Source: a bacterium (lineage in GTDB: Bacteria; Bdellovibrionota_C; UBA2361; SZUA-149; JAEUWB01). Taken from it: a stretch of 64,000 bases of DNA. Of the stretch, positions 13,355 through 50,078 are shown piece by piece. A program made the position numbers and the translations under genes. How positions within the stretch are numbered: position 1 is the stretch's first letter; every line of letters starts with the position of its first letter. The stretch lies in the NCBI GenBank assembly GCA_016786595.1, contig JAEUWB010000035.1, positions 3,182-67,181 on the forward strand, written 5' to 3'. The notes beneath the pieces are model-generated. The model worked only from the letters and a program-made list of their open reading frames with translations. It searched no databases and had not been told where the DNA came from.

Positions 13355-13356
13355 AA

Positions 13357-30559: not shown

Positions 30560-31663
30560 ATGCAGAAATTCATATTGATATTCTCATGCGTATTGGTGAG
30601 CGGATTTTTACCGGCACATATTGTTGCCGCCGAAGTTTGCACGAGCTTTTTCTGTGACAAGAATTCCGACCCAAACAAACTCGGATCGAAATTAATTGCT
30701 AGCACGCCAGAAGAAAATACTTCTGAAAATAAAGCAGTAGCTAATTCGAGTCCAAAGATCGAAACAACCGAGCAATCCTCTGCAACTCAGATCCAATTTG
30801 TAAATAGCGACCCGAAGTCGCACATCGTTTCCCCCGACAAGGACCCAGCGATTCGTATCAATCCTGAAGCACCTGGACCATTCAAGGCTATGGCTGAGCG
30901 CTTCCAAGCCGGCGATATGCAAACTGCATTTGCATACGCACGCCAATATGCGCGCTATCAGAATCGCCTGATGGCAGACGTTTCCGCATTAACTGCCTTA
31001 ATTGGAAAGGCGATGATTGCCGAAGGAATCATCACTGAAGAGCAATGGTTTGGAGCAGATCAATATTTAAAATACAATTTGGCGAAAGCACGCAAAGACT
31101 CAAACTCCCCGTTGAAAATTACCGAGAAAGATACGCTACCACTGATTAAGTCTGTTTCAGGCGGTGAGATTGAAATCTTTTATTTCTTTACGGTGCAAAG
31201 TGAGCACGCGCGCAGAATGAGTCCGGAAGTAGAGCGTTTGTATCGCATACTTAAAAATGATTCGCGCGTAAAAATGCTGGCTTTGAGTATGATCGATGAA
31301 AAACAAGAAATCATCGATCAATATAAACAATACACTGGGTTGACAATGCCCATCGCTCGCGGTGAAGAAATGTCAAAAGCGATGGGTATCGCCTTTGCTC
31401 CAGCAGTGGTCGTTTTATCCAAAAACGATAAGCGCGGGTACTCACGTTCTGGAGAACAAGGTTTTGAAAGTCTCTACACCTTTGTCAAGACGATTCAAGG
31501 CGAGAAAGTTGATTTAACTGCACTTGAGCAGTCAGGAATTTTATCAACGCCGATTGGAGCTGCAGCGAAATCACGTGAAGACTCAATCCGTGCCCAGTAC
31601 AAATCAGTCAAAGGAAAAGCTCAGCCAGCCAATTCTTCAGCGTCAGGGTTAAGTAGGTTTTAG
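30560..31663 (+). CDS. Secreted thioredoxin-fold protein without CxxC, candidate TraF/TrbB-like (F-type T4SS periplasmic) protein (hypothesis)
   Basis: Signal peptide MQKFILIFSCVLVSGFLPAHIVAA, then a Ser/Thr/Glu-rich linker. C-terminal 150 aa (EIFYFFTVQSEHARRMSPEVERLYRIL...KMLALSMIDE...TGLTMPIARGEEMSKAMGIAFAPAVVVLSKND) resembles the TraF thioredoxin-like fold lacking catalytic cysteines. Confidence 0.4.
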   Translation: MQKFILIFSCVLVSGFLPAHIVAAEVCTSFFCDKNSDPNKLGSKLIASTPEENTSENKAVANSSPKIETTEQSSATQIQFVNSDPKSHIVSPDKDPAIRINPEAPGPFKAMAERFQAGDMQTAFAYARQYARYQNRLMADVSALTALIGKAMIAEGIITEEQWFGADQYLKYNLAKARKDSNSPLKITEKDTLPLIKSVSGGEIEIFYFFTVQSEHARRMSPEVERLYRILKNDSRVKMLALSMIDEKQEIIDQYKQYTGLTMPIARGEEMSKAMGIAFAPAVVVLSKNDKRGYSRSGEQGFESLYTFVKTIQGEKVDLTALEQSGILSTPIGAAAKSREDSIRAQYKSVKGKAQPANSSASGLSRF

Positions 31664-31668: not shown

Positions 31669-33537
31669 GTGATGAAACAAGTCAAAAGTTTTAATGGGAA
31701 AAATTTAATGGTGATGAATATGTTAGTAAAAATGTTTTCTCCAAATAAAATTTATACAATTTTAGTTTTGAGTGTGCTGCTTGCAAGTAGCGCGAGTGCG
31801 CAAGATAGTTCTACGGATACGGGCGGCCTTGCTGGCGTTACTGGAGCAACCGGAACGACAGGGCAAGAAAAACAAGATGACCGTGAAACGTTCTGTAAAA
31901 CACTTAGCGCAGAGCGCCGCCGCATTGATCCCTGGTGTTCACCCGAGGCGAAGGCGATGCGTGCTCGTAAAATGGATGAATTCTCCAGTGAAAGTGCCAG
32001 CTTCTTCTATCAAGATACGCAAACTGGTGACAGTAACTATAAAGAGAAAGATTACTATAAGAAGAATAACCTTGCTAAAGATGCTGGAGGTTGGAGCTTC
32101 CAATTAAATGGAATGGTTGGCGACCCGCTAGTCATTCAAAAGCTTCCACTTGAAAAAGAAGCTGGGATTAAGCAAAATGTTATTCCCGCCAATGAGCTTT
32201 ATCGCCAGTTTACTATCCAGGACTTATCTAACGACAATCAAGTTGTTTTGACTTCGATGGCGCAATTTCAGCCACTTTCTGCAATGCGCGCAAGTGCAGT
32301 GGAAAATCAAGAAATTGTTGACCAGCACATGCAATTATTTAGCACTTTGAAAGGTGTTTCTGATCTGACACTTGCATATCTCGATAAAACAGTTGCTTCG
32401 GGTTTAAATGCGGTACAGAACCAAGCTGACGCGCAAGTAACGCAAATGTTATTAAAGCAAATTTCCTGGGCAGCTAATAAGCAAGCTTCTCCTGAATTGT
32501 CACATGCATTCGCCAATACTGAAATGGCGCTGCAGAATTGCATGCAACAGTGTAACGGCGAGTTTGTTCCTGGCGTTTGTGACTACGCAGGCTGCCTAGC
32601 TAAGGTCGAGCAACTGGCAGGCAAGAAGATTGTGGATCCATTTACGCGCAAGGAAATGCCTGACGAAAGTGAATGGTCTTTGGTGCGCAAAGTTTTTGGA
32701 ATTCCACAAGGTATTAAGCTTGCTACGCCTCCACCTGCCGATATCGCGCCACGATTAAAATATGCATGTCGTTTTGCCACACATTTTGGCGATTTGACGA
32801 CTAGAGCAACCGCTGGTGCTACTGGAGGCAACGCACTTAATTACAGCTTTAGGGCTGCAAAGAATGCTCCAGCTGGCGATGAAACAAGAACCACTTGGTA
32901 TATCGACCGCTTCGCACGCAGAATTGAACGAGCAATGGTATGCGCAGTAGAGTGCTACGATAAAAACAAAAATCTTCAAAATTCAGAAGAGGGCATTATC
33001 TGTCAGGCAACAGAAGTATCACGGCCAATATGTATGTATAGTGGGGCAAATGAGGGCTCGAATGTGCAAAACATCGCCTGCGAAAAAATGAATTTCCGCG
33101 TTGCTTTAGAACGCGCTTCGCTAGGCGCGAATGTTACCTTTGCAGATATCATGCATGTTTCATCGATGCCGGAATCAACACGTTGCCGTTTTATCGAAAA
33201 CTTTTCAGGCAACTCTGCAATTGTAGCTTACTCCAAGTACCTACGCACAATGGCTGCGCAAGCAGAAGATATTTTTGTCACGCAGCGCATGGTTCCAGAG
33301 AATGAAAAAGAACTTGTTCGCGGATTAACAACTCGTGCATTCAACAAGATTAACTATGCATTTAATAACATGGCGGCAGAAAGCACGATTAAAACGATGC
33401 TTTTAGAGGCTTGGACGGAATACGACAAGCGTCGCCTTGCTGAGCAAGAAGCTGCAGCAGCCGCAAACCAGTCTGGTCGACTTAATACCGGAACACAGCA
33501 AGGACTTAAAGGTTACGGACGACCAGGTTCTCAATAA
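31669..33537 (+). CDS. Secreted Cys-rich 622 aa protein; TraN-like is a possibility, unverified
   Basis: Signal-like LVLSVLLASSASAQD and about 17 cysteines clustered in the C-terminal two-thirds (CMQQCNGEFVPGVCDYAGC, MVCAVECYDKN, GIICQATEVSRPICMYSG, NIACEKMNF). Size and Cys pattern resemble F-type TraN outer-membrane proteins. Confidence 0.5.
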   Translation: MMKQVKSFNGKNLMVMNMLVKMFSPNKIYTILVLSVLLASSASAQDSSTDTGGLAGVTGATGTTGQEKQDDRETFCKTLSAERRRIDPWCSPEAKAMRARKMDEFSSESASFFYQDTQTGDSNYKEKDYYKKNNLAKDAGGWSFQLNGMVGDPLVIQKLPLEKEAGIKQNVIPANELYRQFTIQDLSNDNQVVLTSMAQFQPLSAMRASAVENQEIVDQHMQLFSTLKGVSDLTLAYLDKTVASGLNAVQNQADAQVTQMLLKQISWAANKQASPELSHAFANTEMALQNCMQQCNGEFVPGVCDYAGCLAKVEQLAGKKIVDPFTRKEMPDESEWSLVRKVFGIPQGIKLATPPPADIAPRLKYACRFATHFGDLTTRATAGATGGNALNYSFRAAKNAPAGDETRTTWYIDRFARRIERAMVCAVECYDKNKNLQNSEEGIICQATEVSRPICMYSGANEGSNVQNIACEKMNFRVALERASLGANVTFADIMHVSSMPESTRCRFIENFSGNSAIVAYSKYLRTMAAQAEDIFVTQRMVPENEKELVRGLTTRAFNKINYAFNNMAAESTIKTMLLEAWTEYDKRRLAEQEAAAAANQSGRLNTGTQQGLKGYGRPGSQ

Positions 33538-33577: not shown

Positions 33578-36343
33578 ATGGCACAGGATGTAATACAATC
33601 AGCTGGGACATTAATCGCCGCCGCTTTAGAGACGGCAGGATATGTCTCGCAGTCGGAGGTCTTGCATGACTTCCAAGCGCTATTCGATGATTGGGCAGCG
33701 TTACTCTATATGGTTGCTGCTCTTGGCGCGATTGTTTCAGTTGCTATCTACGGAAGCTATCGAGCTGCGCGTTACTTCGTTTTCGGTCCCGCCCTTTTCC
33801 AATTATTTGTTTATTCCGTAACTCCCGCTGAAAATGTGCAATGGGCAATGGGGTCAACCCCAGTTGCTCAAGAAGCAGTGCAGGGGGCATTATCTGGAGA
33901 TCTTGCGACTTATAACGTTACGAGTGACACCAAGGTTTCTTGGGTATTTGATCAATACACAAGGTTTGTCAGTAGTGTAGTCAATAAAATTACCTCGACA
34001 ATTGTTGGAGCAAGCGAGCAGACAAATGCCGAAGGCAAGAATGAGCTTTTATTTCTTACACGCGGTGTAGTTTTGGATCAAATGTTCGCGAGCGACTTAG
34101 TCGATGGTAACTTAGTTGCAGTAGTTCGTAGCTCATTGAATCGAGAGTGCGGAGAGCTTTCAGCCGCATATCTTGGAGTTGCTGATCCGAAGCTGCAATA
34201 TGATTACTTCGAGCATCTTACAAAGAAAGCGAGTGAAATTAGAACTGAAATTGCAGCTGATGCTCCTCCGGAATCAAAGGAAGTTGCGATTGCTCAAGCG
34301 GTTGAGCTTGAAAAGGCCGTGGAGCAAGGAAAGGCAACGCGGGAGCAATACGAGGAGATTATCTGTCGCGCTGAAGAGTATAATGTAAGTCTTAAGGGTG
34401 ACCCGACTTTAAGGGAGTATTTAGTTAAAGATTTAGGCACGACAGATCTTGCGGGGTTTAAGGATCGATATGGACTGCAGCTGAATCCTTTAACTTACAA
34501 AGAAGTTGAAGCCCCTGATTTTACAATGACCTGTGGAGAATTATGGTCGTATATAGCAGCTGGAGTAAAGAAAAACGCAAAATATAGGATCGAAGAAGTG
34601 CTTGCCGAGTACACTGGCCGACCTGGCCAACCGAAGCAAAGAGTTCTGTGCAATGAAATTCGACAAGTCTTTGGAATGTCTCCGCTGCCTTCTGAGCAAA
34701 CGCCACGGGGTCAGCGAACACGTTTACGCTGTGGAAAAGAAGTTCTTGTGCAGGGTGACGTGACCGATCCCGGCGGAAATTCTGTTATCGAAGAATGTAA
34801 TTTAGAAAACGTTTTAGGTGCGATGTTGATTAAGCGCGCAATCGGACAACGTGCACCGTCGCGGTGGCTTCAAGATTTCGGATCAAGAGTGCAATTAGAT
34901 GCTAAGCTTTCAGCAGCGCAAGTTAAGTCTGAACTTGAATCTGCACAGCAAGCAGGAACTCAAATGCCAGAAGTGCTTGAGGTCGAATTCAAAAAAATTG
35001 CTTCTGTAGATGCTTTTAATAACGCTTTCGGTGAGCAGCAGACATATACCTCCTATGGATTAAGACAAGCGATTTTCTCTGCAGCTTTAACCTTTCCATA
35101 TTTTCAGGGAGTAATTTTATATCTACTCTGTATTGTTTTCCCTTTTATGGCAGTGGTTCTTGTTATGCCCGGCAAGGCAGAGTCGATTTTCACTTGGTTC
35201 TTGCTCTGGTTCTGGGTCAAATCTTGGGATATTGGTTTTGCGGTTGCGATGGTTCTGGAGAAAGTGCTTTGGAACTTAATGCCACACTATGATGTTCTCG
35301 AAAAAACATCTCTCACTGCAATTCCTCCGGAAGACATTTTAACACACGCATTATCGGGGGATCCGATATATCATATCAATACCTATTATGCGTTGATGGC
35401 GATGTCGATCATGTCGACACCAGTCTTAATGGGCTTTGGCATTTTAAAAGGTCGTGCCGCGATTCTTTCAAGTTTTACTCATGCAGTAAGTCAAACTGCT
35501 GATGAGTCAAAAGAGTTAGGAGAAGGTCGCTATGCTGTAAAGGTCATGAACATGAACCATGCGGCAATGACAGCATTTAAAAACGCCGCGGGCTTAAGTG
35601 CGCGCAGCCGGGACCTTGCTTATTCGGATCTTGCCCCATGGGGGGAAAGCGGTAGAGGAAAAACTAATGAAAGTAGCGATGGCGGTGCTGTCACAGATCA
35701 TGCACGCCAGAGTGGAATGATTCGTGGCGTTAGCTCTGGTGCTGGAGAGGTGATGAGTAGTATTCCAGGCCTTGCAGGCAAGGCTGGTAATTTTTCAAAA
35801 GGTTCTAAGGCTTCAAAGTTAGATAAGAAAAATGCCAAGCTAGATTCAATTGACTCAGGGCTGGGAATTGCCCAAACGGGCATTGATAAATATCTCAGTA
35901 ACTATAAAAGACTCTATGGCGCTGGCATGAGTCGTGAGTTTCAAGAACAGCATTGGAAAGTGCGACTTTCACATTCAGTTTTTACAATGATTGCGCAATA
36001 TAACTCGATTGATGGCGGCGGTGGCTTTGAGCTTGAGCTTTATGAGGTCAAAGCGCTTTGGTCTAGTCTCTCAAGCGCGTACAAAGAAGATACAGAAACT
36101 TTTGTTGGAGCTGCAGAAGATTTGGGTGGCGGTGCTGTAAAGGGTTTGAGTGGCGGTTTCGATAAGTTAATTGGGGGCAATCAAAAAGCCGGAAATTTTG
36201 GCCCTGTTACGGGTGGGGCGATCAAGGGTTTTGTGCGTAGTGATCTTGCAACGTCACTATATCTCTGGTCGCAAAACGACGAGGGCAATGAATTATCACC
36301 AGTGCCAATGCAAATTGATGTCTGGGAAAAGGAGCGTAAATAG
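33578..36343 (+). CDS. Tandem paralog 1 of 5: large polytopic membrane protein, VirB6/TrbL/TraG-N-like layout (hypothesis)
   Basis: N-terminal AGTLIAAALETAGYVSQSEV helix plus TM (LLYMVAALGAIVSVAIYGSY), about 400 aa Cys-containing soluble region, TM cluster with shared signature PYFQGVILYLLCIVFPFMAVVLVMPGK...WFLLWFWVKSWDIGFAVAMVLEKVLW, and a Gly-rich C-terminal domain. Confidence 0.7.
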   Translation: MAQDVIQSAGTLIAAALETAGYVSQSEVLHDFQALFDDWAALLYMVAALGAIVSVAIYGSYRAARYFVFGPALFQLFVYSVTPAENVQWAMGSTPVAQEAVQGALSGDLATYNVTSDTKVSWVFDQYTRFVSSVVNKITSTIVGASEQTNAEGKNELLFLTRGVVLDQMFASDLVDGNLVAVVRSSLNRECGELSAAYLGVADPKLQYDYFEHLTKKASEIRTEIAADAPPESKEVAIAQAVELEKAVEQGKATREQYEEIICRAEEYNVSLKGDPTLREYLVKDLGTTDLAGFKDRYGLQLNPLTYKEVEAPDFTMTCGELWSYIAAGVKKNAKYRIEEVLAEYTGRPGQPKQRVLCNEIRQVFGMSPLPSEQTPRGQRTRLRCGKEVLVQGDVTDPGGNSVIEECNLENVLGAMLIKRAIGQRAPSRWLQDFGSRVQLDAKLSAAQVKSELESAQQAGTQMPEVLEVEFKKIASVDAFNNAFGEQQTYTSYGLRQAIFSAALTFPYFQGVILYLLCIVFPFMAVVLVMPGKAESIFTWFLLWFWVKSWDIGFAVAMVLEKVLWNLMPHYDVLEKTSLTAIPPEDILTHALSGDPIYHINTYYALMAMSIMSTPVLMGFGILKGRAAILSSFTHAVSQTADESKELGEGRYAVKVMNMNHAAMTAFKNAAGLSARSRDLAYSDLAPWGESGRGKTNESSDGGAVTDHARQSGMIRGVSSGAGEVMSSIPGLAGKAGNFSKGSKASKLDKKNAKLDSIDSGLGIAQTGIDKYLSNYKRLYGAGMSREFQEQHWKVRLSHSVFTMIAQYNSIDGGGGFELELYEVKALWSSLSSAYKEDTETFVGAAEDLGGGAVKGLSGGFDKLIGGNQKAGNFGPVTGGAIKGFVRSDLATSLYLWSQNDEGNELSPVPMQIDVWEKERK

Positions 36344-36346
36344 CTT

Positions 36347-38836
36347 ATGGCTGACTACGTATCCGCCGGAACAGAAATGGCAGCAATGCTACAGACTGCA
36401 GGTTACTTCGCGCAATCTGAAATTCTTGCCCACTTAGGCTGGATGTTTGATCAAATTGGCGTAGTGATTCTACTAGGCTGCGCAATTTTTGCCATAGTCT
36501 CTTTTGTTGTTTACGGGCGTGCCGATGCGACAAAATGGTTCTTATTGGGACCACCGCTATTTATTTGGATCCTCAGTTCTCGTATCGAAGCGCATGGAAC
36601 TAAATGGCAGTTTGGTACCTTCGACCGCGGTACTCCTAATGCAGCAGAAGTCTTTCCTTCGATGGAAGGTAAACAGATTAAAGTCTCCTGGGCCTTCCAT
36701 CAGTGGGATTTATTTGTCTCTGAGCTTTCACGCCAACTGATCGACATGTTGACCAAGAGTAGCGAAAAGCCAGATTTGCTTTTTAATGTACGTCAGCAAG
36801 TTATGGATAAAGTGATGTCATCGCGTGTTGCCGATCCGGGATTACTTGAATTAATCCATCTAAGCATGCGCGGACAGTGCGCTGAGAATACGAATTTAAT
36901 TCAACGCATGGTCGATATCGAAACGCAAGATTTGTACAGGAAATATAAAAACCCAACCGACCGTGGCGGATTAAGTCCAGAGGAAGTAAGAGCGGCTGAG
37001 GCTTTAGAGCGCGATTGGAATGCGACCAAGTATCAGCTCGATCTTAAAAGCGGTTCGCGTGAAAATAAACTTAGCGAATCGGCGCGAAACTATGTCCGTG
37101 GGAACTTAACAATTATTGAGAAGACAGGAACTGCAAGTGCCAGTGCTCCAACGGATGTCTCCTATGATGAGTGCATTGGTATAACTGGAACAGAATTAGC
37201 GAAAATGAATTTGGATCTTGCCTGTTCAAACGGAGCTGCTTGCACTGAGGAGCCGAGTGAGTTTTACGATAATGTTTCCTGCGCTCATATCTGGAATTGG
37301 GTTTATCTCGGTGCTAAGCAAGAAGCTTGTGGTGCGATTACCGAAGCGATTGACGGGAGTTTGACCACTAACGCTCAGCAGCCAGAATTGCGTGTAGAAG
37401 TAGCTAAAGAACTTTTGAGTAAGTTGACTAACGGTTCTGGAGGCGAGGCCCCCTCAGCCTATTTGCCACAGATTGTTGCCGGTTATTTTATTCGGAATGA
37501 GCTGACTCGTGACCCAAGTCGCAACTGGGCAAGCACCTTGCACCAACACCTCAGTATTGACGGCATTGAATACGATTATAAAATCAAAACCGAGTACGAA
37601 AATAATGTGCCGGGGGACTTCAGTAAAAATGAGGATATCTATAAAGGTTCGCGACTTTTACGTGAAGCACTAGATTCTTATACGCATCGCTTTACACTTT
37701 ACAGCACGGCTATGGCGATGCCCTACTTTCAAGGTGTATTGCTTTATATACTCGCACTACTATTTCCGTTCTTCTGTATTTTTATTCTTGTTCCAGGTTT
37801 TGCCGGGGCATTCTTTATTTGGCCTGCGCTTTGGATGTGGGTGAAATTCTGGGATGTCGGGTTTGCAATGGTTAAGGTCCTCGATGAATTTCTCTGGGAA
37901 ATTATGCCACACGCAAATTACGATTGGCGCTCTGCGATGGAAGGCACCGGAGAGATTACGCGAGCACCGGTTGATGCCTTGCGTGTAGCTTTTGGTTATG
38001 ATCCGGGTTACAGCCTCTCAAATTACTACCACATTCTTTCTGTTGCGCTTGTGAGTATCCCTGTAGTTTTTGGACAGGCGATTCTTGGCGGCAAAGCCGC
38101 ACTAGTGTCTCCATTTTTAAATGGCGCTAAGGCGCTTGGGCAGAAGCGTGGCGCAGATGCAGACATGATGTACGGTTCATATCAGGCAGGTGTTATCGAT
38201 AAACTGCGTGAAAAATACGCGGTAAAAACAGTTAAAAACCGCCTTCGTAAAGGCCAAGTCGCTCGAACAGGGCGTAGGGAACTCCTTGGAATTAAAGAAC
38301 AAATTGATGCCACCGAAGCAAGTCAGTCGCAAAACCTGATTAATGGTGGGGTAGGGATGGTGCTAGGCGGAGTAGCTACAGTCGCTGGAGTTATCTGCTG
38401 TTTTACTGGAGTGGGTGCTGTGGTTGGAGCACCGTTAATCGGTGCAGGAGTAGGTGCGATGGCTAGTTCAGGAATGTCTACAGCAGGGGCAATGATTGAT
38501 AAGCGTCGTTTAGCAAATCAAGGGCGAGCTGGTTACACGAAATTAAATGCAAGAATGTTATACCAAGATTTACAGAAAGACCGCAGTTATCAGGCCTTTG
38601 ATATGTATCGTGCAGCAGTTACTGACCGTATTGAGTTTTGGAACTTGCCGGATGTTGACAGTCAATCAATAGCTAAGTTGGCAACTTTTGCGACAGAGAT
38701 GCAAGCAAAAACTGGCAGCATCGATACACATCAGATCGGGAAAATGCTGGGAGATACTGCTGAGCTAGCTGAAATTGGATCATGGTTTTCTGGCAAGGGT
38801 GGTGGACCTAAACCAGGTGGAGTTGGGACACCGTAA
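36347..38836 (+). CDS. Tandem paralog 2 of 5 (829 aa)
   Basis: AGTEMAAMLQTAGYFAQSEIL, TM, soluble region, PYFQGVLLYILALLFPFFCIFILVPGF...WPALWMWVKFWDVGFAMVKVLDEFLW, and a Gly/Ala-rich hydrophobic C-terminal segment (GGVGMVLGGVATVAGVICCFTGVGAVVGAPLIGAGVGAMA). Confidence 0.7.
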   Translation: MADYVSAGTEMAAMLQTAGYFAQSEILAHLGWMFDQIGVVILLGCAIFAIVSFVVYGRADATKWFLLGPPLFIWILSSRIEAHGTKWQFGTFDRGTPNAAEVFPSMEGKQIKVSWAFHQWDLFVSELSRQLIDMLTKSSEKPDLLFNVRQQVMDKVMSSRVADPGLLELIHLSMRGQCAENTNLIQRMVDIETQDLYRKYKNPTDRGGLSPEEVRAAEALERDWNATKYQLDLKSGSRENKLSESARNYVRGNLTIIEKTGTASASAPTDVSYDECIGITGTELAKMNLDLACSNGAACTEEPSEFYDNVSCAHIWNWVYLGAKQEACGAITEAIDGSLTTNAQQPELRVEVAKELLSKLTNGSGGEAPSAYLPQIVAGYFIRNELTRDPSRNWASTLHQHLSIDGIEYDYKIKTEYENNVPGDFSKNEDIYKGSRLLREALDSYTHRFTLYSTAMAMPYFQGVLLYILALLFPFFCIFILVPGFAGAFFIWPALWMWVKFWDVGFAMVKVLDEFLWEIMPHANYDWRSAMEGTGEITRAPVDALRVAFGYDPGYSLSNYYHILSVALVSIPVVFGQAILGGKAALVSPFLNGAKALGQKRGADADMMYGSYQAGVIDKLREKYAVKTVKNRLRKGQVARTGRRELLGIKEQIDATEASQSQNLINGGVGMVLGGVATVAGVICCFTGVGAVVGAPLIGAGVGAMASSGMSTAGAMIDKRRLANQGRAGYTKLNARMLYQDLQKDRSYQAFDMYRAAVTDRIEFWNLPDVDSQSIAKLATFATEMQAKTGSIDTHQIGKMLGDTAELAEIGSWFSGKGGGPKPGGVGTP

Positions 38837-38841
38837 CTTTT

Positions 38842-38983
38842 AGACTGAGTGCCAAAATAGCTGTTAATTAGGCTGTAGTTGAGGCACTCAGTCTAATCGT
38901 CCAGTAAACTGATTTTACTGGACAAAATAAATAAATACCCGTTGACGAAAGTTTCGTTAATCGAAAAAACTTTTGGCAACGGG
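38842..38983 (+). promoter_or_regulatory. Structured intergenic region splitting the paralog array: a 12 bp-stem hairpin (AGACTGAGTGCC/GGCACTCAGTCT), a second hairpin (CCAGTAAA...TTTACTGG), and a third (CCCGTTG...CAACGGG) containing a TTGACG -35-like element
   Basis: Read directly from the sequence. This is the only untranslated gap longer than 4 bp among the five paralogs, so it is a probable terminator plus internal promoter. Confidence 0.45.
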
Positions 38984-39009
38984 TTTAGGTAAAGATTTTT
39001 AAAAATAAT

Positions 39010-41145
39010 ATGCCACCAGAAACGGATGGAGTTGCAATTGGTGCTGTAGGGCACTTAATCGCTGCAGTGATGCAGACAGCTGGCATGTATGGCCAGTCTG
39101 AGATTCTTGCGACTATGCAGTTCTGGTTTCAACAAATGGGAGCGCTGATTTTTATTGCTTTCGCAGCAATGGCTCTCGGCCAACTTGTCATTTTTGGATC
39201 CTATCGCGGCGCGCTTTGGTTTGTGATCGCGCCTGTTCTCTTTCAATATGTAATTTTCTCTAAGCAAAATGTTGAGCTTACCAATTGGAAGTTTGGTAAC
39301 CGTTACGGTGAGAATGCCGGGCTAAATAGTGGAGAAGAGGAGTCAAAGGCTGCGATTGAGGAAAAGCTCAAGGAACTTAAGGTAGAGCTTCCAGAAAATG
39401 GAACAGCCTACTTATCGAATATATTTGTTGAATTTGACAAAGCAGTTTCTGCTATCGTGCAAAACACAGTAGCATTTCTAGTCGACCAAGATCGCCAAAG
39501 CGACCTTAAGTTTGTTGCCCGCATGAAATTATTCGAATCGCTCTTTCAAGAGCGACCCAATAGCGCAGGCTTGCATGAACTGATTATGACGGGTCTTGTC
39601 GGTGAGTGCGGGCAAGCGACAAATAATATGCAATCGCTCTCAAGTATTAAAATTCTAGAAGAGAAAGCCCGTGCTAAGGGTTCGAGTTTAGATCCGAAAA
39701 TTTTAGAACAGAAAAGCAAACTCGAAGAAGAACAAGCTCGCATATTTAGTGACCGCAAAGTGCAGTTTTCACGACCAGTTTGTCAATACTTGCAAGACTT
39801 ACAAGGTTGCTTCATTGGCAGCAATTTTCAGGAATTAAATTGCACACGTCCGGACTTGTACGGCTGCTATGAGCCACTATCCTACCTGCGCCCGAGTGAA
39901 CGCGGGAGTCAAGACTCGGCATCATGTAGCGACGTTTGGAAATATGTTTTCTTAGGTACATACCAGGAAGCAAAATATAAATTTGAAAAACTTGCTAAGG
40001 AAAACACCAAGCTTGGGTTGAAATGGGAAGACTTAGCAAAAGAAGTCTTGGAGAAAATTCCAGCCACTGGGGAGATTGATAATCCTGAAGTTTCTTCAGC
40101 AGCGTTTCAAGTGATTGCCGGACATTTACTACAGAACCATGTGCTGAGAACTCCTCACGGCGCATTAACTAGTGGCCTTTATGGTCGTCTGACTGAACAC
40201 TCGCAGATGACTAGTGAGATATTTGAATGGGGACAAGATGCTGAATCAATCGGGGATCAAGCATACTTATTAACGCTCAGTGGAATGCTACCTTATATTC
40301 AAGGTGTGGCCTTGTTTCTACTGTCGATTACTTTCCCATTCTTTGCGTTGTTCTTATTAATGCCAGGAAGAGTGAATACATTTTTCATGTGGCCTGCAAT
40401 GTGGATTTGGGTCAAGTCTTGGGATATTGGCTATGCACTTGTGCACATGATCGAGCAGCTGCTTTGGGAATTCATGCCGCATGTTGTACGTAGTGAACTT
40501 AGTGCTTACACAGCAGACTGGACGAATCCGAATTCAATTTGGACCACAATCTTTAGCAATGACCCAGTTTATTCGCCGAATTTATATTACTCCGTTTTAG
40601 GCGTATCGACTTTAGCAATTCCGGTGATCACGGCCCACCTGACCATGGCCAGTACTGACTTACTTGATGTATTTAACTCACGCCTGTCTTCATATGGCTC
40701 TCGTGTTCAAGCGCGTCAAAAGAACGTCGAGCGTAACCGCTTAGGAGGAACTCGAGATAATGAGTGGAAAATGGCTACTGGTGAAGCATGGGATAATGCA
40801 CGTGTCGCCTTAATGAAAAGTGAAGCTGGTAAAGCTAAGAAAAAACAAGGCGATGGTCTTTATGCCCGCTACGTCGATGCTAAAGCAAATCTTGCGCGTT
40901 TTGAGCGCAGTCACGATGATGACATTATTTGGCAAAAATCTTCAGCCAATATGCTGCGGGGTGCTCGTAAGATGAACTACAGCGCTAAATACACACAACA
41001 AGCAATCGATTCAGAAGCAGAATTGTATATCCAGGAAAAGGGATACGAGAGTGGCTTCTATGGATCAGAGAATTACGATACTACAGCGACGAATGCAGAT
41101 GCTTCAGTTTCGTCGGGTGGTGATAATGATGGTTCTGGAGAATAG
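39010..41145 (+). CDS. Tandem paralog 3 of 5 (711 aa)
   Basis: VGHLIAAVMQTAGMYGQSEIL, TM (IFIAFAAMALGQLVIFGSY), LPYIQGVALFLLSITFPFFALFLLMPGR...WPAMWIWVKSWDIGYALVHMIEQLLW. Confidence 0.7.
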   Translation: MPPETDGVAIGAVGHLIAAVMQTAGMYGQSEILATMQFWFQQMGALIFIAFAAMALGQLVIFGSYRGALWFVIAPVLFQYVIFSKQNVELTNWKFGNRYGENAGLNSGEEESKAAIEEKLKELKVELPENGTAYLSNIFVEFDKAVSAIVQNTVAFLVDQDRQSDLKFVARMKLFESLFQERPNSAGLHELIMTGLVGECGQATNNMQSLSSIKILEEKARAKGSSLDPKILEQKSKLEEEQARIFSDRKVQFSRPVCQYLQDLQGCFIGSNFQELNCTRPDLYGCYEPLSYLRPSERGSQDSASCSDVWKYVFLGTYQEAKYKFEKLAKENTKLGLKWEDLAKEVLEKIPATGEIDNPEVSSAAFQVIAGHLLQNHVLRTPHGALTSGLYGRLTEHSQMTSEIFEWGQDAESIGDQAYLLTLSGMLPYIQGVALFLLSITFPFFALFLLMPGRVNTFFMWPAMWIWVKSWDIGYALVHMIEQLLWEFMPHVVRSELSAYTADWTNPNSIWTTIFSNDPVYSPNLYYSVLGVSTLAIPVITAHLTMASTDLLDVFNSRLSSYGSRVQARQKNVERNRLGGTRDNEWKMATGEAWDNARVALMKSEAGKAKKKQGDGLYARYVDAKANLARFERSHDDDIIWQKSSANMLRGARKMNYSAKYTQQAIDSEAELYIQEKGYESGFYGSENYDTTATNADASVSSGGDNDGSGE

Positions 41146-41147
41146 GC

Positions 41148-43577
41148 ATGCCGGATCCAGTCAATAGCATCGAATCAGGATCTTTAGGAACAGCAGGTTC
41201 TCTGATTGCTGCCGCCTTGGAAACTGGCGGGCATTATCTCCAATCCGGAATAATTGATACTTTCTCGCAGGGACTTTCCAATGAAATTGGCGCCGTGCTC
41301 TATATCGCTGCAGCAATTGGCGCAATTATGACTGTTGCCCTTGGCGGCAGATATCTGCACGCAATGTGGTTTATCGCTGGGCCAATTCTTTTTCAAGCAG
41401 TTGTTTTTTCGCGCACCCCTTCAATTGGCCCATCCTTTTCGATGGGGCAGCGGCCAATTACCATGGACGAGAAAAAAGCTGCGTTGAATGAAGCGATTGA
41501 TAGCCCCTCGTTGGAACTGCTCAAGCAAGCGAAAGTTTCAGTGTTTTTTAGCACCTGGGTGCAAATTGTAGATAGTGTCAACCAGGGCTTGATTAAGGTT
41601 ATTTTTCAAATCAAGGATCAAGATCAATTACAATTCTTATTACAAAGCCAAATTTATGCAGCGATGCTCAATTCCCGCATTGAAGATCCTGCACTTCAAA
41701 CATTAACAAAGCTTGTCTTGCTCAAAGAATGTGCTCCCTATGTATCGGCCGCAAGAAGTGCTTATGACGATAACTTAACTACTAAAAATCAACTCGAAGC
41801 TCAGGGTTTAATGCGGGATTATGGGGCCTTCCCTGTGTCTTTAGATACGCACCCGTATTTAAGGCAGTTTATGGATTCACCTTTTGCAAAAAGCATGTTC
41901 GAGAATCCTAACGCTGAGTGTAAGGACCCACACATCGCAGGTAAAACAAATATAGCCTGCGCTGATATTTGGAATTTGGCATTTTGCTCACTGAAGCAAG
42001 AAGCGCGCAGAATGGTGCTAGATACGATGAGCTCAGTGCCGCAAGAAGTGACAGATGCATCTGTAATGCAAGCGATTTTAAAAAAGCTAAACCCTGACAC
42101 TGCGGCGCACACTCCTGCTGAGCAATTTAACATTGTCTATAATGCAGTTGCTGCACGGATGATGAATAAAGCATTGAAGGAATTGAATCCAGGCTCGCAG
42201 TATTTGCTTGCCGACCGGGATTTTAAGCTGGCCAATGATCAAGTTTTTTCGGTCAATAAAATTGTTTCCAAAATTAACGTTCCAGAACGCTATAAAGGTG
42301 TCGGTGATTTTCTTGAGGCGATGTTAGCTCTGCCCTATGTGCAAGGCATGCTTCTATTTTATTTGTCACTTGCCTTTCCATTTTTTGCTTTAGCTTTGAT
42401 CATTCCTGGTAGATATGAACTTTTCTTGGCTTGGATGGCTTTGTGGGCATGGGTTAAATCTTGGGATGTTGGCATGGCAGCAGTCATGCTCTTAGAGAAA
42501 ATTCTCTGGTCAACCTTGCCCGGCACTCACGCAATTGATGATCGTTTTGCCGAAGATCCGGGGCTAGTCTTTAAGCAGGTGCTAGGGTCAGATCCACTTT
42601 ACTCGATGAATACGCATTATCTAATTATTGCTGGAGCGATGGCCGCAGTGCCAGTGTTGACGGGATTTATCGTTAAACGCGGAGCCGGTGAAATTATTGA
42701 TGCTGTTGGCAATAGTATGGGTAAGTTTGCTGGCCGCATCGGTAACGCAATGCGCGACTACGAATCTTCGATTCACGCCCAGAACGAAGTTGCCTTGATG
42801 GCTAAGAAAAAAGAAGATGCCGTGATGGCAGCCCGTGGCGGAGCATTTGCCCGCGCCTCAGACGCTTACGAGAAAAGAATGGTCCTTAGTAGCGCAAGCC
42901 AAGCCTCGAAAGGTGGTATTGTTAATAATGTCTTGATTAATCCTAAGTCAGTGCTGCAGGGACAATCTACTAAGAGCGCCAATATTGCCGGTTCAATTAT
43001 GGACTTTGAAATGGCGAATAACGTCTATAAGGCAAGTATCTCTAAAGATGTCTTAAAGCATGCTTGGAGTGCGGTCTCTTACGGTTGGTATAACCACGAT
43101 TTCCAAGACGAGCCGGTCTGGGATTACAAACGTAAATTCGAATTGGCGAAACTAGGTCAATTTGAGCGTAAGGGATATTCTGAACCTTTTAAGTGGTTTA
43201 CCGATGTGGCTTATCAAGGGAAAGAAGTGCGAGGCGTAGGAGATATTTATGCACAAATTCCGCGAGAACTCACTGTGATGGCTGGGTTGTTCAGTAGTGG
43301 GAGTCCCGCGAGTTTCGTATTGCAGCCATTGTATACCCACCAAATTACTTCGACGATTGCGCACGAACAGCGCCCAGACCTACGCCGCGATGGTATGGAC
43401 TTGGCTAACGTTGTCCAACGCAGCACTTACTCAGGGACTCGTATTGATGGAGGGGATATCATGCTCGGTCGATCTGAAAATCGCATGACTAAGTATCAAG
43501 ATCGCGCTGAAAACGATCAGTATATCGCCTATCAGAGAAAATACTTAGGCACTGGTGGGGGAATTGAGGGAAGGTAA
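41148..43577 (+). CDS. Tandem paralog 4 of 5 (809 aa)
   Basis: GTAGSLIAAALETGGHYLQSGII, TM (VLYIAAAIGAIMTVALGG), LPYVQGMLLFYLSLAFPFFALALIIPGR...WMALWAWVKSWDVGMAAVMLLEKILW. Confidence 0.7.
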   Translation: MPDPVNSIESGSLGTAGSLIAAALETGGHYLQSGIIDTFSQGLSNEIGAVLYIAAAIGAIMTVALGGRYLHAMWFIAGPILFQAVVFSRTPSIGPSFSMGQRPITMDEKKAALNEAIDSPSLELLKQAKVSVFFSTWVQIVDSVNQGLIKVIFQIKDQDQLQFLLQSQIYAAMLNSRIEDPALQTLTKLVLLKECAPYVSAARSAYDDNLTTKNQLEAQGLMRDYGAFPVSLDTHPYLRQFMDSPFAKSMFENPNAECKDPHIAGKTNIACADIWNLAFCSLKQEARRMVLDTMSSVPQEVTDASVMQAILKKLNPDTAAHTPAEQFNIVYNAVAARMMNKALKELNPGSQYLLADRDFKLANDQVFSVNKIVSKINVPERYKGVGDFLEAMLALPYVQGMLLFYLSLAFPFFALALIIPGRYELFLAWMALWAWVKSWDVGMAAVMLLEKILWSTLPGTHAIDDRFAEDPGLVFKQVLGSDPLYSMNTHYLIIAGAMAAVPVLTGFIVKRGAGEIIDAVGNSMGKFAGRIGNAMRDYESSIHAQNEVALMAKKKEDAVMAARGGAFARASDAYEKRMVLSSASQASKGGIVNNVLINPKSVLQGQSTKSANIAGSIMDFEMANNVYKASISKDVLKHAWSAVSYGWYNHDFQDEPVWDYKRKFELAKLGQFERKGYSEPFKWFTDVAYQGKEVRGVGDIYAQIPRELTVMAGLFSSGSPASFVLQPLYTHQITSTIAHEQRPDLRRDGMDLANVVQRSTYSGTRIDGGDIMLGRSENRMTKYQDRAENDQYIAYQRKYLGTGGGIEGR

Positions 43578-43579
43578 GT

Positions 43580-46378
43580 ATGGCAGACCCTGTCTCAGTT
43601 GGCTCATCAGCATTAATGGTTGCTTCAGCTCTGGAGACTGCTGGTTATTATTACCAGTCCTATGTGCTTGATTCATTCAGCTCTACAATCATGGGGCCAC
43701 TTGGTGCGATTGCCTTTATTGTTGCAGGGATACTAGCAATTACTCAGTATGTTGTTGCCGGTGAATATAAGGCTTTTCTTTGGTTTGTAGTTGGTCCGGG
43801 GTTATTAGCAGCTGTTATTTTGACGCGCGAACCTACGACAGGCTCAAATTGGATTTTTGGCGATGAAGCTCGCGATCAAGCCGAAAAAAATGAAGTGATC
43901 CAATCAATCACAACAATCGATAATACAAATACCCCAAAAGTTTCTTCTTTCTTTGCTTGGTACAATAATTTAACGAGCGAACTTGTGCGCTCAATTGTTA
44001 CAAAACTAGTAGAGCAGCGTCAAAAAGCGGATATGACCTTTGTCGCGCGCACGCAGTTGCTACAAACTGCCGTGACTCAATCGATTTCAGATCCGCGCTT
44101 GAGTTCCATGATTCACGCAGGTCTTTGGGGACATTGTGGTGAGCTTGCTAAGGCCGCAAGGCAAACTCATCTTGCCAGCCTTGGTGATCGTGGCGCTGAT
44201 CCAAAGGGTGAGTATCAACGCTTTTATAGTCAAAATAAAGATCAAGAAATTGTTCCCTATAGTCAATACACAATTGATTATTTGGTTTCGCGTGCTGATC
44301 CTGCGAATCGTGCAAATGTGGCAAAAGAAGCGCAACGATCGTACTCCTGCCAAGAAATTTGGGATTTAGTTTACGAAGATCTCCTAGATCAATCAGCTCA
44401 AATCCAGACTCGCTTAACTGAGCGAGCCAAGTCCTTAGGTATCCCTGAGGAGAAATTTGAGGCAGATCTAACAAAAGCTCTAGGCGGCATGACTGCTGAC
44501 GATCCAAATCGTGGGCATGAACTGCATCAAGTATTAGCTAAGCATTTATTGAAAATTGAGTCGCACAAGGGATCAAGCGCACGCTATCCTCAAATGCTTG
44601 CGCGACAAGGTGGCGAAGCGGGCTCTGTTGCTAAGGTAGAACGCATGAAATGGTCGGGCCGCGAGCAAGAGCATAAAAGTAGGCTGGTCACAACTGCGAT
44701 GACGCTACCATACTATCAAGGGCTAATGCTTTACTTCTTGGCCTATACTTTTCCATTCTTTGCGATCCTTTTAGTGATCCCTGGTAAGTATACGGGCGCG
44801 TTAATGTGGTGCGTGCTCTGGTTGTGGGTGAAGAGCTGGGATATTGGCTATGCTGTTGTAATGATGCTTGATGATATTCTGTTTGGAATGTTTGCAGCTA
44901 ATCAAGATCCTACGGCATCGCAATTTTCCAATGATTTGGGCACCGTGATGGCCAGTCTTTCGGCATACGACCCGACGATGAATTTATCGACTTATTATTA
45001 TATTGTGGGCGTTTGCTTTTCTACTATTCCGGTGATCATGGGCTATATGGTGATGGGTGCGGCGAAAGGCGGAGCCCAGCTGATTGAAAACGGCGCAAAA
45101 ACATATGCGACTTCAATCGGAACTGGTGCTGGGTTATCGCAAAACCAAGGCCAGAACTTACAACTTCGCGCAGGAGAATTTAGAGCAGCAACGAATAATA
45201 TTTTTAACCGCTTAAGAAATGACAATGCGAAAACTCGTAATGACATGTCAGATATGGAATATCAGTCGCGCAAGGGTGGACTGCCAATAATGCCCAATAA
45301 CCGCGTTGATTCTATTAGTGGGCGCAGCATTCAGCAGTTGAAAGATGATTTTGTGTATTGGAGTGCTTGGGAGGGAGCGTTTGAAGGGTATAAAGGAAGC
45401 GGCCTTGTGCGTAAATTCGCAGGAGATTTAGGCATTGCTGGAAATATCGAGACTCCTGGGAAGGACGCGCAAAATGTGGATGTTGACAACGCATTAACTC
45501 CAATTACTTTTGCAACCCGCCGCTTAGCAGGAACAGCCTTACCAAAAGTAGCATTTGAGAAAGAATCTGCTTACAAGCATATGCAAGCTCGAGTTGGGCA
45601 AGTTATTGCCGAAGAAATGTTTGACTATTCACTTTCTTTTGCAGGCATGGCTCATGCGCAAGACAGACGCGTTTATCGAGGCTTTGAATTGCCATCGGCA
45701 TATGACGATCCGGGCGAAAGTATTTACGCCGCTAGAATGGTTAAAGACCAACGGTTAATTGAGAGCGCTAAGGCAATTAGTAACACGGGATTCAATCTTA
45801 CTCGCGGTGGCGTGCAGTTTATCGAGAACTACGGTAAAGGCAAAAAAATGCGAGGTAGCGTAGATAAGGCGGGTAAAAAAGGTGGGGGCTTCGGAGGTAA
45901 AACTAATGGCACCCCTCTCATCGGTGGACAGCTTGAGCCAATTTTTATTACATTAGGCGTAGCTGATCAGCTAGAAATGGGAGATTTCGGCTACACTCCA
46001 AACCAACACATGGACATCGCACTGGATCAACAAACTTTCCATGACAATGCAATTGGCAGTGGTCCAGGAGGACGTGCTCCGGAAATGCCTGGTTATGCAG
46101 GAGTTGTTGAGAAAGTGGTCGGATCAAACCTACAAGATTGGAACCAGCGTTCTTATGGGACAATGGATTTAAGTGAAGCTTCAATCGCGGAGCGTAAGCA
46201 CGTAACTGCACGCTTAGAGCAGGCAATCGACGATGCTCGGCTTGGTAACCGCGAGGCTGATATAGCTAGAAACTTGTTAGCAGATCGCTACACTTCGATG
46301 GCGGATTTGAAACAATCCTTAGATCGCCTACTTGAGGAAAATCAAAAACTCGCTAAGACGGAAAAATCCGGCAATTAA
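43580..46378 (+). CDS. Tandem paralog 5 of 5 (932 aa)
   Basis: SALMVASALETAGYYYQSYVL, TM (AIAFIVAGILAITQYVVAGEY), LPYYQGLMLYFLAYTFPFFAILLVIPGK...WCVLWLWVKSWDIGYAVVMMLDDILF, long C-terminal soluble domain. Confidence 0.7.
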   Translation: MADPVSVGSSALMVASALETAGYYYQSYVLDSFSSTIMGPLGAIAFIVAGILAITQYVVAGEYKAFLWFVVGPGLLAAVILTREPTTGSNWIFGDEARDQAEKNEVIQSITTIDNTNTPKVSSFFAWYNNLTSELVRSIVTKLVEQRQKADMTFVARTQLLQTAVTQSISDPRLSSMIHAGLWGHCGELAKAARQTHLASLGDRGADPKGEYQRFYSQNKDQEIVPYSQYTIDYLVSRADPANRANVAKEAQRSYSCQEIWDLVYEDLLDQSAQIQTRLTERAKSLGIPEEKFEADLTKALGGMTADDPNRGHELHQVLAKHLLKIESHKGSSARYPQMLARQGGEAGSVAKVERMKWSGREQEHKSRLVTTAMTLPYYQGLMLYFLAYTFPFFAILLVIPGKYTGALMWCVLWLWVKSWDIGYAVVMMLDDILFGMFAANQDPTASQFSNDLGTVMASLSAYDPTMNLSTYYYIVGVCFSTIPVIMGYMVMGAAKGGAQLIENGAKTYATSIGTGAGLSQNQGQNLQLRAGEFRAATNNIFNRLRNDNAKTRNDMSDMEYQSRKGGLPIMPNNRVDSISGRSIQQLKDDFVYWSAWEGAFEGYKGSGLVRKFAGDLGIAGNIETPGKDAQNVDVDNALTPITFATRRLAGTALPKVAFEKESAYKHMQARVGQVIAEEMFDYSLSFAGMAHAQDRRVYRGFELPSAYDDPGESIYAARMVKDQRLIESAKAISNTGFNLTRGGVQFIENYGKGKKMRGSVDKAGKKGGGFGGKTNGTPLIGGQLEPIFITLGVADQLEMGDFGYTPNQHMDIALDQQTFHDNAIGSGPGGRAPEMPGYAGVVEKVVGSNLQDWNQRSYGTMDLSEASIAERKHVTARLEQAIDDARLGNREADIARNLLADRYTSMADLKQSLDRLLEENQKLAKTEKSGN

Positions 46379-47447: not shown

Positions 47448-47891
47448 TTAACTCATTTTGCTAGGGAAATTATGCAGGGCTTTCTTGAGTTGTTCTGGTA
47501 AAGGGCAAATCTCAAATTCATGAGTTGGGCTTGTTTTTACAAAAACGTGCTTGGTGCGCCCATGGTGTAATAAATCTGTAATTGCAGATTTGCGTGAAGA
47601 GAAAATATTATAATTTGCTTGAAAGCTCGCTTTGCCGATTTCAGAAAAATATAATTCAACTACTAATTCGTTACCGTAGCGAATTGGTTTTTTATACTGT
47701 AGCTCTGCGTCAATGACCGCCAAGTGATAATTTTCTTTTACTAAGTCCGAGTAGGGCAGGGCGATTGAGCGCAAAAAATCTTCGCGCGCACGTTCGTAGA
47801 TTACAAAATAATTTGCGTGGTAAAGCACTCCGCCTAAATCAAAAAGACCAAGCTGAAGATTGTCGATCGTTGTGATGAAGGGCTGGTTCAA
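47448..47891 (-). CDS. Hotdog-fold acyl-CoA thioesterase (YbgC/4HBT-like)
   Basis: LGLFDLGGVLYHANYFVIYERAREDFL pattern typical of 4HBT thioesterases. 147 aa. Confidence 0.6.
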   Translation of the reverse strand: MNQPFITTIDNLQLGLFDLGGVLYHANYFVIYERAREDFLRSIALPYSDLVKENYHLAVIDAELQYKKPIRYGNELVVELYFSEIGKASFQANYNIFSSRKSAITDLLHHGRTKHVFVKTSPTHEFEICPLPEQLKKALHNFPSKMS

Positions 47892-49700: not shown

Positions 49701-50078
49701 ATGGAGGCAATTGCATCTATGTTCAGTCATCAAAAATTATATGTATATCAAAAGGCTATAACTTATTTTTCAAAAATTGCAGACATTCTTGTCCAAATTC
49801 CACCGGGGAACAAAGACATCGTAAGCCAGTTGAGGAGGGCAGCGATCTCAATAGCGCTTAATATTGCCGAAGGTGCAGGTAAGACAAGTTCTATGGATAA
49901 AAGACGTTTTTATTCGATAGCACGTGGCTCTGCTTTAGAATGTGCTGCGATATTTGATTTATTGGTTATCTTGAAGCTTTCAAGTGAGGAAGAATTGAGC
50001 GAATGTCGCGCACTTCTGAGCGAAATTGCGTCAATGTTTTCAGCTATGACACAGGTGAACAAAAAGGTCGAAGGCTAA
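49701..50078 (+). CDS. Four-helix-bundle protein (TIGR02436 / S23p type, the family typically encoded inside 23S rRNA intervening sequences)
   Basis: YQKAITYFSKIADIL...LRRAAISIALNIAEGAGKTSSMDKRRFYSIARGSALECAAIFDLL is the characteristic pattern of this family. The stop codon lies inside the downstream family-B repeat. Confidence 0.75.
   Translation: MEAIASMFSHQKLYVYQKAITYFSKIADILVQIPPGNKDIVSQLRRAAISIALNIAEGAGKTSSMDKRRFYSIARGSALECAAIFDLLVILKLSSEEELSECRALLSEIASMFSAMTQVNKKVEG

Follow-up and report, generated by a model that had tools for sequence, protein, structure and literature searches.

The stretch of DNA analysed here (64,000 nt of contig JAEUWB010000035.1 from a Bdellovibrionota bacterium, hereafter the 64-kb window) contains five tandem genes, designated p1 to p5, which encode large membrane proteins and which are, to judge from their sequences, ancient paralogs of the TraG_N ('extended VirB6') family of type IV secretion system (T4SS) subunits. 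These genes are part of a seven-gene operon, in which a TraF-like gene (gene 1) and a gene in the position of traH (gene 2) precede the five TraG_N genes (Table 1). On the best reading of the homologies, this operon would have descended from the TraF-'TraH'-TraG segment of a Bdellovibrionota F-like T4SS. The proposal that it was domesticated, and that its five paralogs assemble as one hetero-pentameric VirB6/DotA-like ring, is put forward here as having about an even chance of being correct.

The original prediction, made from the sequence alone, had described five tandem ORFs of 711-932 aa, and the coordinates and lengths that it implied were found to be exact. The intergenic gaps p1-p2, p2-p3, p3-p4 and p4-p5 measure 3, 173, 2 and 2 nt, respectively. 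In a MAFFT alignment of the five proteins, p2-p5 share 23-26% identity with p1 and about 48 columns are invariant. Indeed, the invariant residues include (in p1 numbering): (i) A14, T19, G21, Q25 and S26 of the N-terminal helix (A..T.G...QS), (ii) two cysteines of the soluble region, C191 and C319, and (iii) the signature P507-Y-x-Q-G...F521-P-F...P531-G...W540...W544-x-W-V-K-x-W-D-x-G-x-A...L564. The alignment thus reproduces both the N-terminal helix pattern and the PY.QG...FPF...PG...W.WVK.WD.G.A signature that had been predicted, as well as a Cys-containing soluble region, although the latter spans ~290-420 aa and not 350-400 aa. A profile built from the five cores scores each copy at 683-834 bits, far past chance.

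At the DNA level, the only repeats among the copies are the 80-nt stretch that encodes the best-conserved part of the signature and a 39-nt stretch just upstream of it, with 60-77% identity overall. Furthermore, an independent ENA scaffold matches p3-p5 at 100%. Since the DNA repeats are so short and diverged, and since this scaffold agrees over p3-p5, the copies are old paralogs and not an assembly artefact. The GC content of the array region is 0.44-0.46, the same as that of its flanks, and is flat across the region. In the NCBI annotation of this genome (locus tags JNK13_, proteins MBL7662186-92), p4 ('TraG N-terminal domain-containing protein') and p5 are named as TraG_N-containing, p2 is named 'DUF4225', and p1 and p3 are hypothetical proteins; only p4 and p5 are therefore recognised as TraG-like in public annotation.

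All five paralogs match the Pfam family TraG_N (PF07916; curated gathering score of 36.1 bits) at E-values from 1e-9 to 8e-4. The sole paralog over the gathering score is p5 (38.4 bits, E 1e-9), while p4 (35.6 bits, E 7e-9, covering model positions 100-456 of 462) and p1 (35.0 bits, E 1e-8) fall about 1 bit short of it; p3 scores 26.6 bits and p2 19.0 bits (E 8e-4). Precomputed PF07916 annotation is also found on many orthologs. Furthermore, single-copy TraG_N proteins of ~700 aa encoded in four other loci (L027, L028, L030 and L032) match all five paralogs by BLASTP, at E 1e-17 to 1e-30. These single copies are embedded in T4SS gene clusters. Indeed, the Pfam-scanned locus L030 encodes a VirD4-type coupling protein (TraG-D_C), TraE, TrbI/VirB10 and TraC_F_IV/VirB4, and is an F-like T4SS cluster; the gene layout of L032 is the same over the same span, and L027 and L028 agree over the portion that their contigs reach. 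Membership of the TraG_N lineage is therefore secured by transitive homology through the T4SS-embedded single copies, despite the Pfam scores that lie below the cut-off.

These matches bear out the lead towards an F-type TraG/VirB6-like channel subunit given in the original prediction. Its two other suggestions fared differently: an entirely novel membrane system is excluded by the TraG_N homology, and the idea of an adhesin found no support, the C-terminal tails being devoid of any recognisable domain. The NCBIfam model PRK13735 (TraG, 922 positions) aligns with residues 480-641 of p1 only (E 0.045), no other NCBIfam match was informative, and the mating-pair-stabilisation/entry-exclusion domain of F TraG is not matched by the C-terminal halves, either in NCBIfam or in a comparison of 65 tails with Pfam. 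A Foldseek search of the PDB with a structure model of p3 gave no significant match. Among 1.84 billion library representatives, 814 homologs were found at E <= 1e-3 and 683 of these at E <= 1e-30; by this measure, the array family is a compact, lineage-restricted clade.

The original prediction had treated the five genes as the unit. The paralogs are real, but the two genes directly upstream, which belong to the same unit, had been overlooked: gene 2 starts 5 nt after the end of gene 1, and p1 starts 40 nt after the end of gene 2. The active-site position of the thioredoxin-fold protein encoded by gene 1 reads QSEH, with no CXXC motif. In the F system, the absence of CXXC in TraF is the hallmark that separates it from TrbB (PMC7555446). 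No Pfam family named TraF is among the reported matches of gene 1. The protein shares homology with thioredoxin-like proteins of the T4SS loci, whose genes lie ~1.5 kb ahead of TraG_N (BLASTP E 1e-11 to 1e-16). In an alignment of 11 members of this thioredoxin-like family, T4SS-locus genes included, one member has kept a CxxC motif (CTYC, in the partner gene at positions 3-494 of L012), which suggests that the ancestral partner could have been redox-active like TrbB.

The protein encoded by gene 2 has a signal-peptide-like N-terminus, conserved Cys clusters and a long C-terminal helix. TraH of F-like systems is a Cys-rich, secreted protein with a C-terminal coiled coil. In at least 10 related loci, p1 is immediately preceded by an ortholog of gene 2, and hhalign relates this family to the one whose genes immediately precede TraG_N in T4SS and orphan loci of Bdellovibrionota (94.6% probability, E 7e-8). 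On the basis of its location and of this hhalign result, it is designated here as a putative 'TraH-position' protein. The operon order, i.e. a thioredoxin-like protein, then a Cys-rich protein, then TraG, mirrors that of F-like systems. A scan for promoters and terminators returned counts equal to the shuffled expectation.

Table 1. Features of the seven-gene operon and its surroundings, with positions in the 64-kb window unless a related locus is named.
Feature	Position (nt)	Strand	Description
Gene 1, secreted thioredoxin-fold TraF-like protein	30560..31663	+	367 aa; weak Pfam Thioredoxin_8/2 matches, residues 206-296
Gene 2, Cys-rich secreted protein	31669..33537	+	622 aa from GTG, or 601 aa from ATG at 31732
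p1	33578..36343	+	921 aa; TraG_N-like core and position-1-specific tail
p2	36347..38836	+	829 aa; TraG_N-like core and tail with a Gly-rich hydrophobic hairpin, residues ~650-710
p3	39010..41145	+	711 aa; shortest of the five; paralog chosen for the structure model
p4	41148..43577	+	809 aa
p5	43580..46378	+	932 aa; longest tail, ~420 aa
Best-conserved stretch (W-x-W-V-K-[SF]-W-D-x-G...L-W) in p1	35207..35286	+	DNA-level repeat, 80 nt
Counterparts of this stretch in the other copies	37832-37911, 40402-40481, 42444-42523, 44819-44898	+	60-73% DNA identity
Separate p2-tail ORFs in related loci	L019 6240-7049, L022 6218-6976, L023 6300-7082, L024 6321-7118, L029 4313-5092		
TPR paralogs flanking a small GIY-YIG ORF	26310-27944; 28577-30232	+; -	TPR only (Pfam/NCBIfam)
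Small GIY-YIG ORF	28208-28516	-	Between the TPR paralogs
Polysaccharide-deacetylase-like protein	46375-47445	-	Pfam; downstream of the array
4HBT thioesterase	47448-47891	-	Pfam; downstream of the array

When a collection of 185,579 genomes, one per species, was scanned for the peptide motif of the conserved stretch, 37 loci were found, all of them in metagenome-assembled genomes (MAGs) whose labels read Bdellovibrionales, Bdellovibrionota, Oligoflexia, 'Deltaproteobacteria' or unclassified. The array, complete or in fragments, occurs in 26 of these MAGs, which represent at least 26 species, all uncultured Bdellovibrionota; one of its loci, L011, comes from the complete genome JAXLVP010000001.1 (3.26 Mb). 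A core-profile search of the locus ORFs found exactly five tandem copies in each of the 16 complete arrays, i.e. those on contigs long enough to span the entire array, the window included. In copy number and order, the array does not vary between these genomes, a possibility that had been raised for a comparative check: five copies in a fixed order were found throughout. Best BLAST matches track gene position from p1 to p5. In a neighbour-joining tree of 95 cores, with the T4SS-embedded and orphan single copies as the outgroup, each position forms a near-pure clade, with the topology ((p4,p5),((p2,p3),p1)). The near-purity of these clades indicates that the four duplications predate the radiation of these genomes and that the five copies have been kept in order since. 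Two contigs of the MAG CAYOAK01 (L013 and L021) carry partial arrays with overlapping positions, p1-p4 and p2-p4, which means either that two arrays are present in this genome or that two strains were binned together.

Three states were recognised among 34 species-level genomes and never co-occur: an array (26 genomes), a T4SS-embedded single copy (four genomes) and an orphan single copy (four genomes). The orphan state consists of a trio, namely a thioredoxin-like gene, a TraH-position gene and one TraG_N gene coding for 1000-1100 aa, found in four MAGs (L037-L040), for example at positions 6759-13093 of L040 and 6944-13339 of L039. The contexts of these trios are mutually unrelated, beside fliF/H/I, ABC-F or aminoacyl-tRNA synthetase genes; the trio of L039 lies just downstream of fliF, fliH and fliI, and L038 apparently has two TraH-position genes. 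A tblastn search with p5 against 72,556 plasmids gave no match, and neither the array nor any other TraG/VirB6 system of Bdellovibrionota was described in the literature searched.

When the large ORFs of the window were compared with Pfam, none matched VirB4, VirB11 or VirD4, in agreement with the earlier statement that no T4SS ATPase or core gene is encoded there. All T4SS-locus proteins of at least 100 aa were also compared by BLAST with the window and with array and orphan loci that total ~514 kb. Homologs were found for two families only, the thioredoxin-like one and TraG_N, and no VirB4, VirD4 or VirB10 was found. In the Bdellovibrionota that have a T4SS, all T4SS genes are contiguous. 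The earlier description of the array as an orphan is therefore valid for the T4SS core genes, which are not nearby, but not for the TraF-like and TraH-position partners, which are retained. Around the operon, one or two deacetylase-like genes and the 4HBT thioesterase gene are found on the downstream side of the array in no fewer than 15 related loci, and the rest of the window is of housekeeping character, with MetH, an AddA-like helicase-nuclease, CysS, transketolase, Kup, pyruvate dehydrogenase (PDH) and Cmr genes. These housekeeping flanks, the conserved neighbours and the flat GC content point to vertical chromosomal inheritance and not to an island. Mobile-island cargo was considered and rejected on the grounds of flanks, conserved synteny and uniform GC content; neither an integrase nor a relaxase was seen among the scanned window ORFs.

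The C-terminal tails are alike within a position only and never across positions, and the 65 tails compared with Pfam share no domain, the matches being isolated and limited to single members. In the window, the tails of p1, p3, p4 and p5 are exemplified by positions 35504-36340, 40705-41142, 42738-43574 and 45113-46375, respectively. Their measured lengths (~145-420 aa) extend beyond the 150-350 aa originally proposed, and Gly-richness is not restricted to p1, p2 and p5 as had been thought: across orthologs, the tails of every position contain ~8-11% Gly. The tails of p1, p3, p4 and p5 are Cys-free in all 16 genomes (64 tails, mean ~200-460 aa), compared with 0.55-0.84% Cys in the matching cores, a bias seen more typically in polypeptides that are exported or extended. 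The first 40 residues of the tails are net positive, which fits a cytoplasmic location and a model with five transmembrane helices (TM1 to TM5).

The tail of p2 stands apart by its matches. It scores 27.2 bits (E 3e-6) against DUF4225, whose family cut-off is 25.9, and matches the translocon or pore-former families SseC, NheB and SseD weakly, with SseC and NheB far under their cut-offs. A Gly-rich double hydrophobic helix lies in this tail (window positions 38147-38833, residues ~627-753), and the T4SS-embedded TraG_N protein of L030 has a Gly-zipper match at the place equivalent to the p2 tail hairpin. In one subclade, p2 is cut to ~690 aa and a separate ORF of ~260 aa, located between p2 and p3, carries the tail-end motif of full-length p2 (RDW..YR..E..RAY..NR.EWF). 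This looks like a gene fission of the tail. The occurrence of the p2 tail as a separate ORF indicates that the tail is a separable module.

Charge averages over 80 array proteins are negative for the N-terminal tail and the TM4-TM5 loop and positive for the short TM1-TM2 and TM3-TM4 loops. Position-2 orthologs often begin with a signal-peptide-like extension of 35-65 aa ahead of the conserved amphipathic helix (for example P0002, P0004, P0005, P0007 and P0012); p2 of the window starts right at this helix, where a longer ORF is impossible. From the loop charges and the position-2 signal peptides, the N-terminus and the Cys-containing domain are predicted to be periplasmic, and a periplasmic Cys domain fits the secreted thioredoxin-like and Cys-rich partners. 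The W-rich 'TM4' holds about four charged residues. In TrwI, membrane insertion is limited to helices 1 and 2, and the core of the pentamer is built from the remaining hydrophobic helices (PMC9259494, PMC12857230). By analogy, the label 'polytopic' may overstate the case for the array proteins.

VirB6 (TrwI) and DotA both assemble as pentamers that form a stalk or protochannel (PMC9259494, PMC12857230). This precedent, taken with five paralogs that are co-retained, tightly packed and non-interchangeable, is what points to a hetero-pentamer. In the mechanism proposed here, one subunit of each paralog would enter a single ring anchored by the N-terminal helix hairpin. Its Cys-containing domains would point into the periplasm; there, the two partners, thioredoxin-like and Cys-rich, could act on them or dock to them as chaperones or docking factors. 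Each subunit would add its own distinct Cys-free C-terminal extension, and the ring could serve as a conduit or an assembly platform across the envelope. It would be either the VirB6 part of a T4SS encoded elsewhere in the genome, as in Rickettsia, or a self-contained device.

Several observations weigh against this proposal. Firstly, as regards the family, four of the five paralogs score under the PF07916 gathering score, no paralog matches PF04610 (TrbL/VirB6) at E <= 1, contrary to what the VirB6 comparison of the original prediction had led one to look for, and sequence searches of the PDB with profiles of 5 and 31 sequences returned low-complexity noise only (Huntingtin polyQ, rad21). Secondly, as regards the TraH identity, Pfam TraH is unmatched by the gene 2 family (11 array-linked and nine T4SS- or orphan-linked members), and an AlphaFold2 model of gene 2 from seven homologs, with a pLDDT of 41, was too poor to use. 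Thirdly, the side on which the tails lie is ambiguous: their positive start suggests cytoplasmic tails, whereas the lack of Cys may mean that they are exported, perhaps threaded unfolded. Finally, the hetero-pentamer is inferred from the number five and from analogy. In Anaplasmataceae, four VirB6 paralogs suffice (PMC2653234), so that the number five need not mirror the stoichiometry of a ring.

An alternative, somewhat doubtful but the best placed of those considered, is that these bacteria have a scattered chromosomal T4SS, similar to the rvh system of Rickettsiales, in which the array is the VirB6/TraG component with its TraF/TraH-like helpers and the other islets lie elsewhere. This explanation overlaps with the domesticated-operon proposal and differs from it solely in the dependence of the module on a T4SS. 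There is a clear model for it, as the T4SS of Rickettsia is spread over five islets and includes five tandem, diverged VirB6 genes coding for 674-1154 aa (PMC2653234). The derivation of the array from a T4SS-embedded ancestor speaks for it as well, and so does the fact that none of the 26 array MAGs gave a second, T4SS-linked TraG_N with the motif, which fits the array as the only TraG. However, no VirB4, VirD4, VirB10 or TraE occurs in the 64-kb window or within ~10 kb around the related arrays, whereas the virB6 array of Rickettsia adjoins virB3-virB4, and T4SS genes are contiguous in the Bdellovibrionota having them. Moreover, the presence of orphan trios in four genomes, in unrelated contexts, suggests that the trio works as its own unit.

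The orphan trios, together with the contiguity of T4SS genes where these are present, tilt slightly towards an autonomous unit. In its strongest form, the domesticated-operon proposal would describe a self-contained, T4SS-independent hetero-pentameric envelope device, domesticated from a conjugation system by (probably predatory) Bdellovibrionota; in this complete form it is rather unlikely. Such a device would act without a VirB4-type ATPase, for example in prey contact or invasion, or in the export of its own Cys-free extensions.

It is improbable that the five genes encode independent TraG-like proteins, each homo-oligomeric and used alternatively, for example as stabilisation or exclusion variants or for a T4SS remodelling of the kind known from Salmonella genomic island 1 (SGI1). 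The orphan traN, traH and traG genes of SGI1 do substitute into the T4SS of a helper plasmid (PMC5389848), and the C-terminal half of F TraG is involved in mating-pair stabilisation and entry exclusion (PMC7555446); the array tails are wholly different between positions, as specificity determinants would be. Families under alternative use or in an arms race nevertheless normally vary in number and order, which are fixed here in 16 of 16 arrays. The locus is not an island, as its housekeeping flanks, synteny and uniform GC content attest, and the spacing of mostly 2-3 nt between the genes is consistent with their co-translation in equal amounts. The last alternative, i.e. that the proteins are polytopic transporters of an unrelated family or that the copies are an assembly artefact of a single repeated gene, has next to no probability: the former could draw on the top Foldseek matches of the p3 model, which include MscK, MurJ, major facilitator superfamily (MFS) and ClC transporters but are non-significant, and is rejected given the established TraG_N homology, while the latter is rejected because the copies are diverged at the DNA level and an independent scaffold carries p3-p5 identically.

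Among known systems, the nearest family is F-type TraG_N with TraF and TraH; the R388 pentamer of TrwI/VirB6 and the Legionella Dot/Icm pentamer of DotA (DotA-IcmX protochannel) are also among the closest. With the TraG/TraF/TraH proteins of the F plasmid, the array shares (i) the TraG_N profile, matched by all five paralogs, (ii) a membrane-anchored N-terminal half, a large Cys-containing loop and a long variable C-terminal half, as in F TraG, (iii) the gene order of F-like systems, and (iv) a thioredoxin-fold partner without CXXC, as F TraF. It differs from the F system in having five TraG copies instead of one, in the absence of TraC/VirB4, TraB/K/V, pilin, TraN, TraU, TraW, TraD and relaxase near the array, and in C-terminal halves without similarity to the stabilisation domain of F TraG. 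Furthermore, its 'TraH' partner is not matched by Pfam TraH, and the locus is chromosomal, syntenic and vertically inherited.

The rvhB6a-e genes of Rickettsia, which the original prediction had already cited as a five-gene tandem array, hold up as an analogue, in that the array is likewise tandem, strongly diverged and lineage-conserved. Both are sets of five tandem paralogs of a T4SS stalk or channel subunit (PMC2653234), with proteins of 674-1154 aa in Rickettsia and 711-932 aa here and a divergence between copies of ~75-80% (about 80% in Rickettsia). In both, a short hydrophobic Trp-containing core is the only conserved part, the flanks diverge from copy to copy and the array is lineage-wide. 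However, rvhB6 belongs to PF04610 and is of P-type ancestry, whereas the array belongs to PF07916 and is of F-like ancestry; rvhB6 adjoins virB3-virB4a and other rvh islets are known, whereas there is no VirB3 or VirB4 near the array; and the phylum is different, the outgroup of the array being the single-copy TraG_N of Bdellovibrionota. In view of these differences in Pfam family, T4SS ancestry, phylum and virB3/virB4 adjacency, the likeness appears to be convergent, and the rvhB6 array is the closest analogue, apparently not related by common descent.

A further comparison is offered by TraN_S/TraH_S/TraG_S of SGI1, which encodes traH and traG homologs without the remaining T4SS (PMC5389848). 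Unlike the array, SGI1 is a mobilisable island that hijacks the T4SS of a helper plasmid. The array is fixed in the chromosome with housekeeping neighbours (MetH, CysS, transketolase, Kup and PDH) and has five TraG copies.

The central pentameric stalk or protochannel formed by VirB6, TraG or DotA is the least understood part of T4SS. To our knowledge, the Rickettsiales have been the only well-known case of a lineage in which this subunit is multiplied. The array represents a second, apparently independent five-fold multiplication of a pentameric T4SS subunit, derived from the F type rather than the P type, in a phylum whose cultured members are bacterial predators. As the number of paralogs equals the number of subunits in the VirB6/DotA ring, the idea of a hetero-pentamer is directly testable. 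The separation from T4SS core genes and the orphan single-copy versions raise the possibility that the TraF/'TraH'/TraG sub-assembly works alone and, with it, that a T4SS sub-assembly has been co-opted for a new function in a predatory phylum. If the array did prove to encode an autonomous device, it would provide the first demonstration that a VirB6-family ring can function outside a T4SS, as well as the first such ring that is an obligate hetero-oligomer.

As for the remaining surroundings of the operon, the array is flanked in most related loci by TPR homologs, of which one usually lies on the opposite strand, downstream of p5. The window differs from L002, L004, L007, L010 and others in that both TPR paralogs are upstream of the operon, and the arrangement with the GIY-YIG ORF reflects an insertion or a rearrangement at this site. 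Several ORFs of 144-411 aa without a Pfam family are found at positions 12479-16280, 20332-21435 and 55585-56671, one of them coding for a coiled-coil protein of 291 aa; these ORFs have no BLAST homolog in the T4SS loci of Bdellovibrionota. The gene for a Fic/DOC protein of 255 aa overlaps by 4 nt with the ORF immediately downstream, which codes for 126 aa and has a weak match to DUF6364 (10755-11899, minus strand); the two may form a toxin-antitoxin pair. Part of a type III-B CRISPR-Cas effector cluster is found at 52067-55498 (plus strand), namely genes for RAMP-superfamily proteins of 328 and 405 aa and for a Cmr5-like protein of 143 aa, and a 264-aa ORF without assignment. Finally, a stand-alone gene of the '23S rRNA intervening sequence protein' family is present at 49701-50078 (plus strand), with no rRNA in view.

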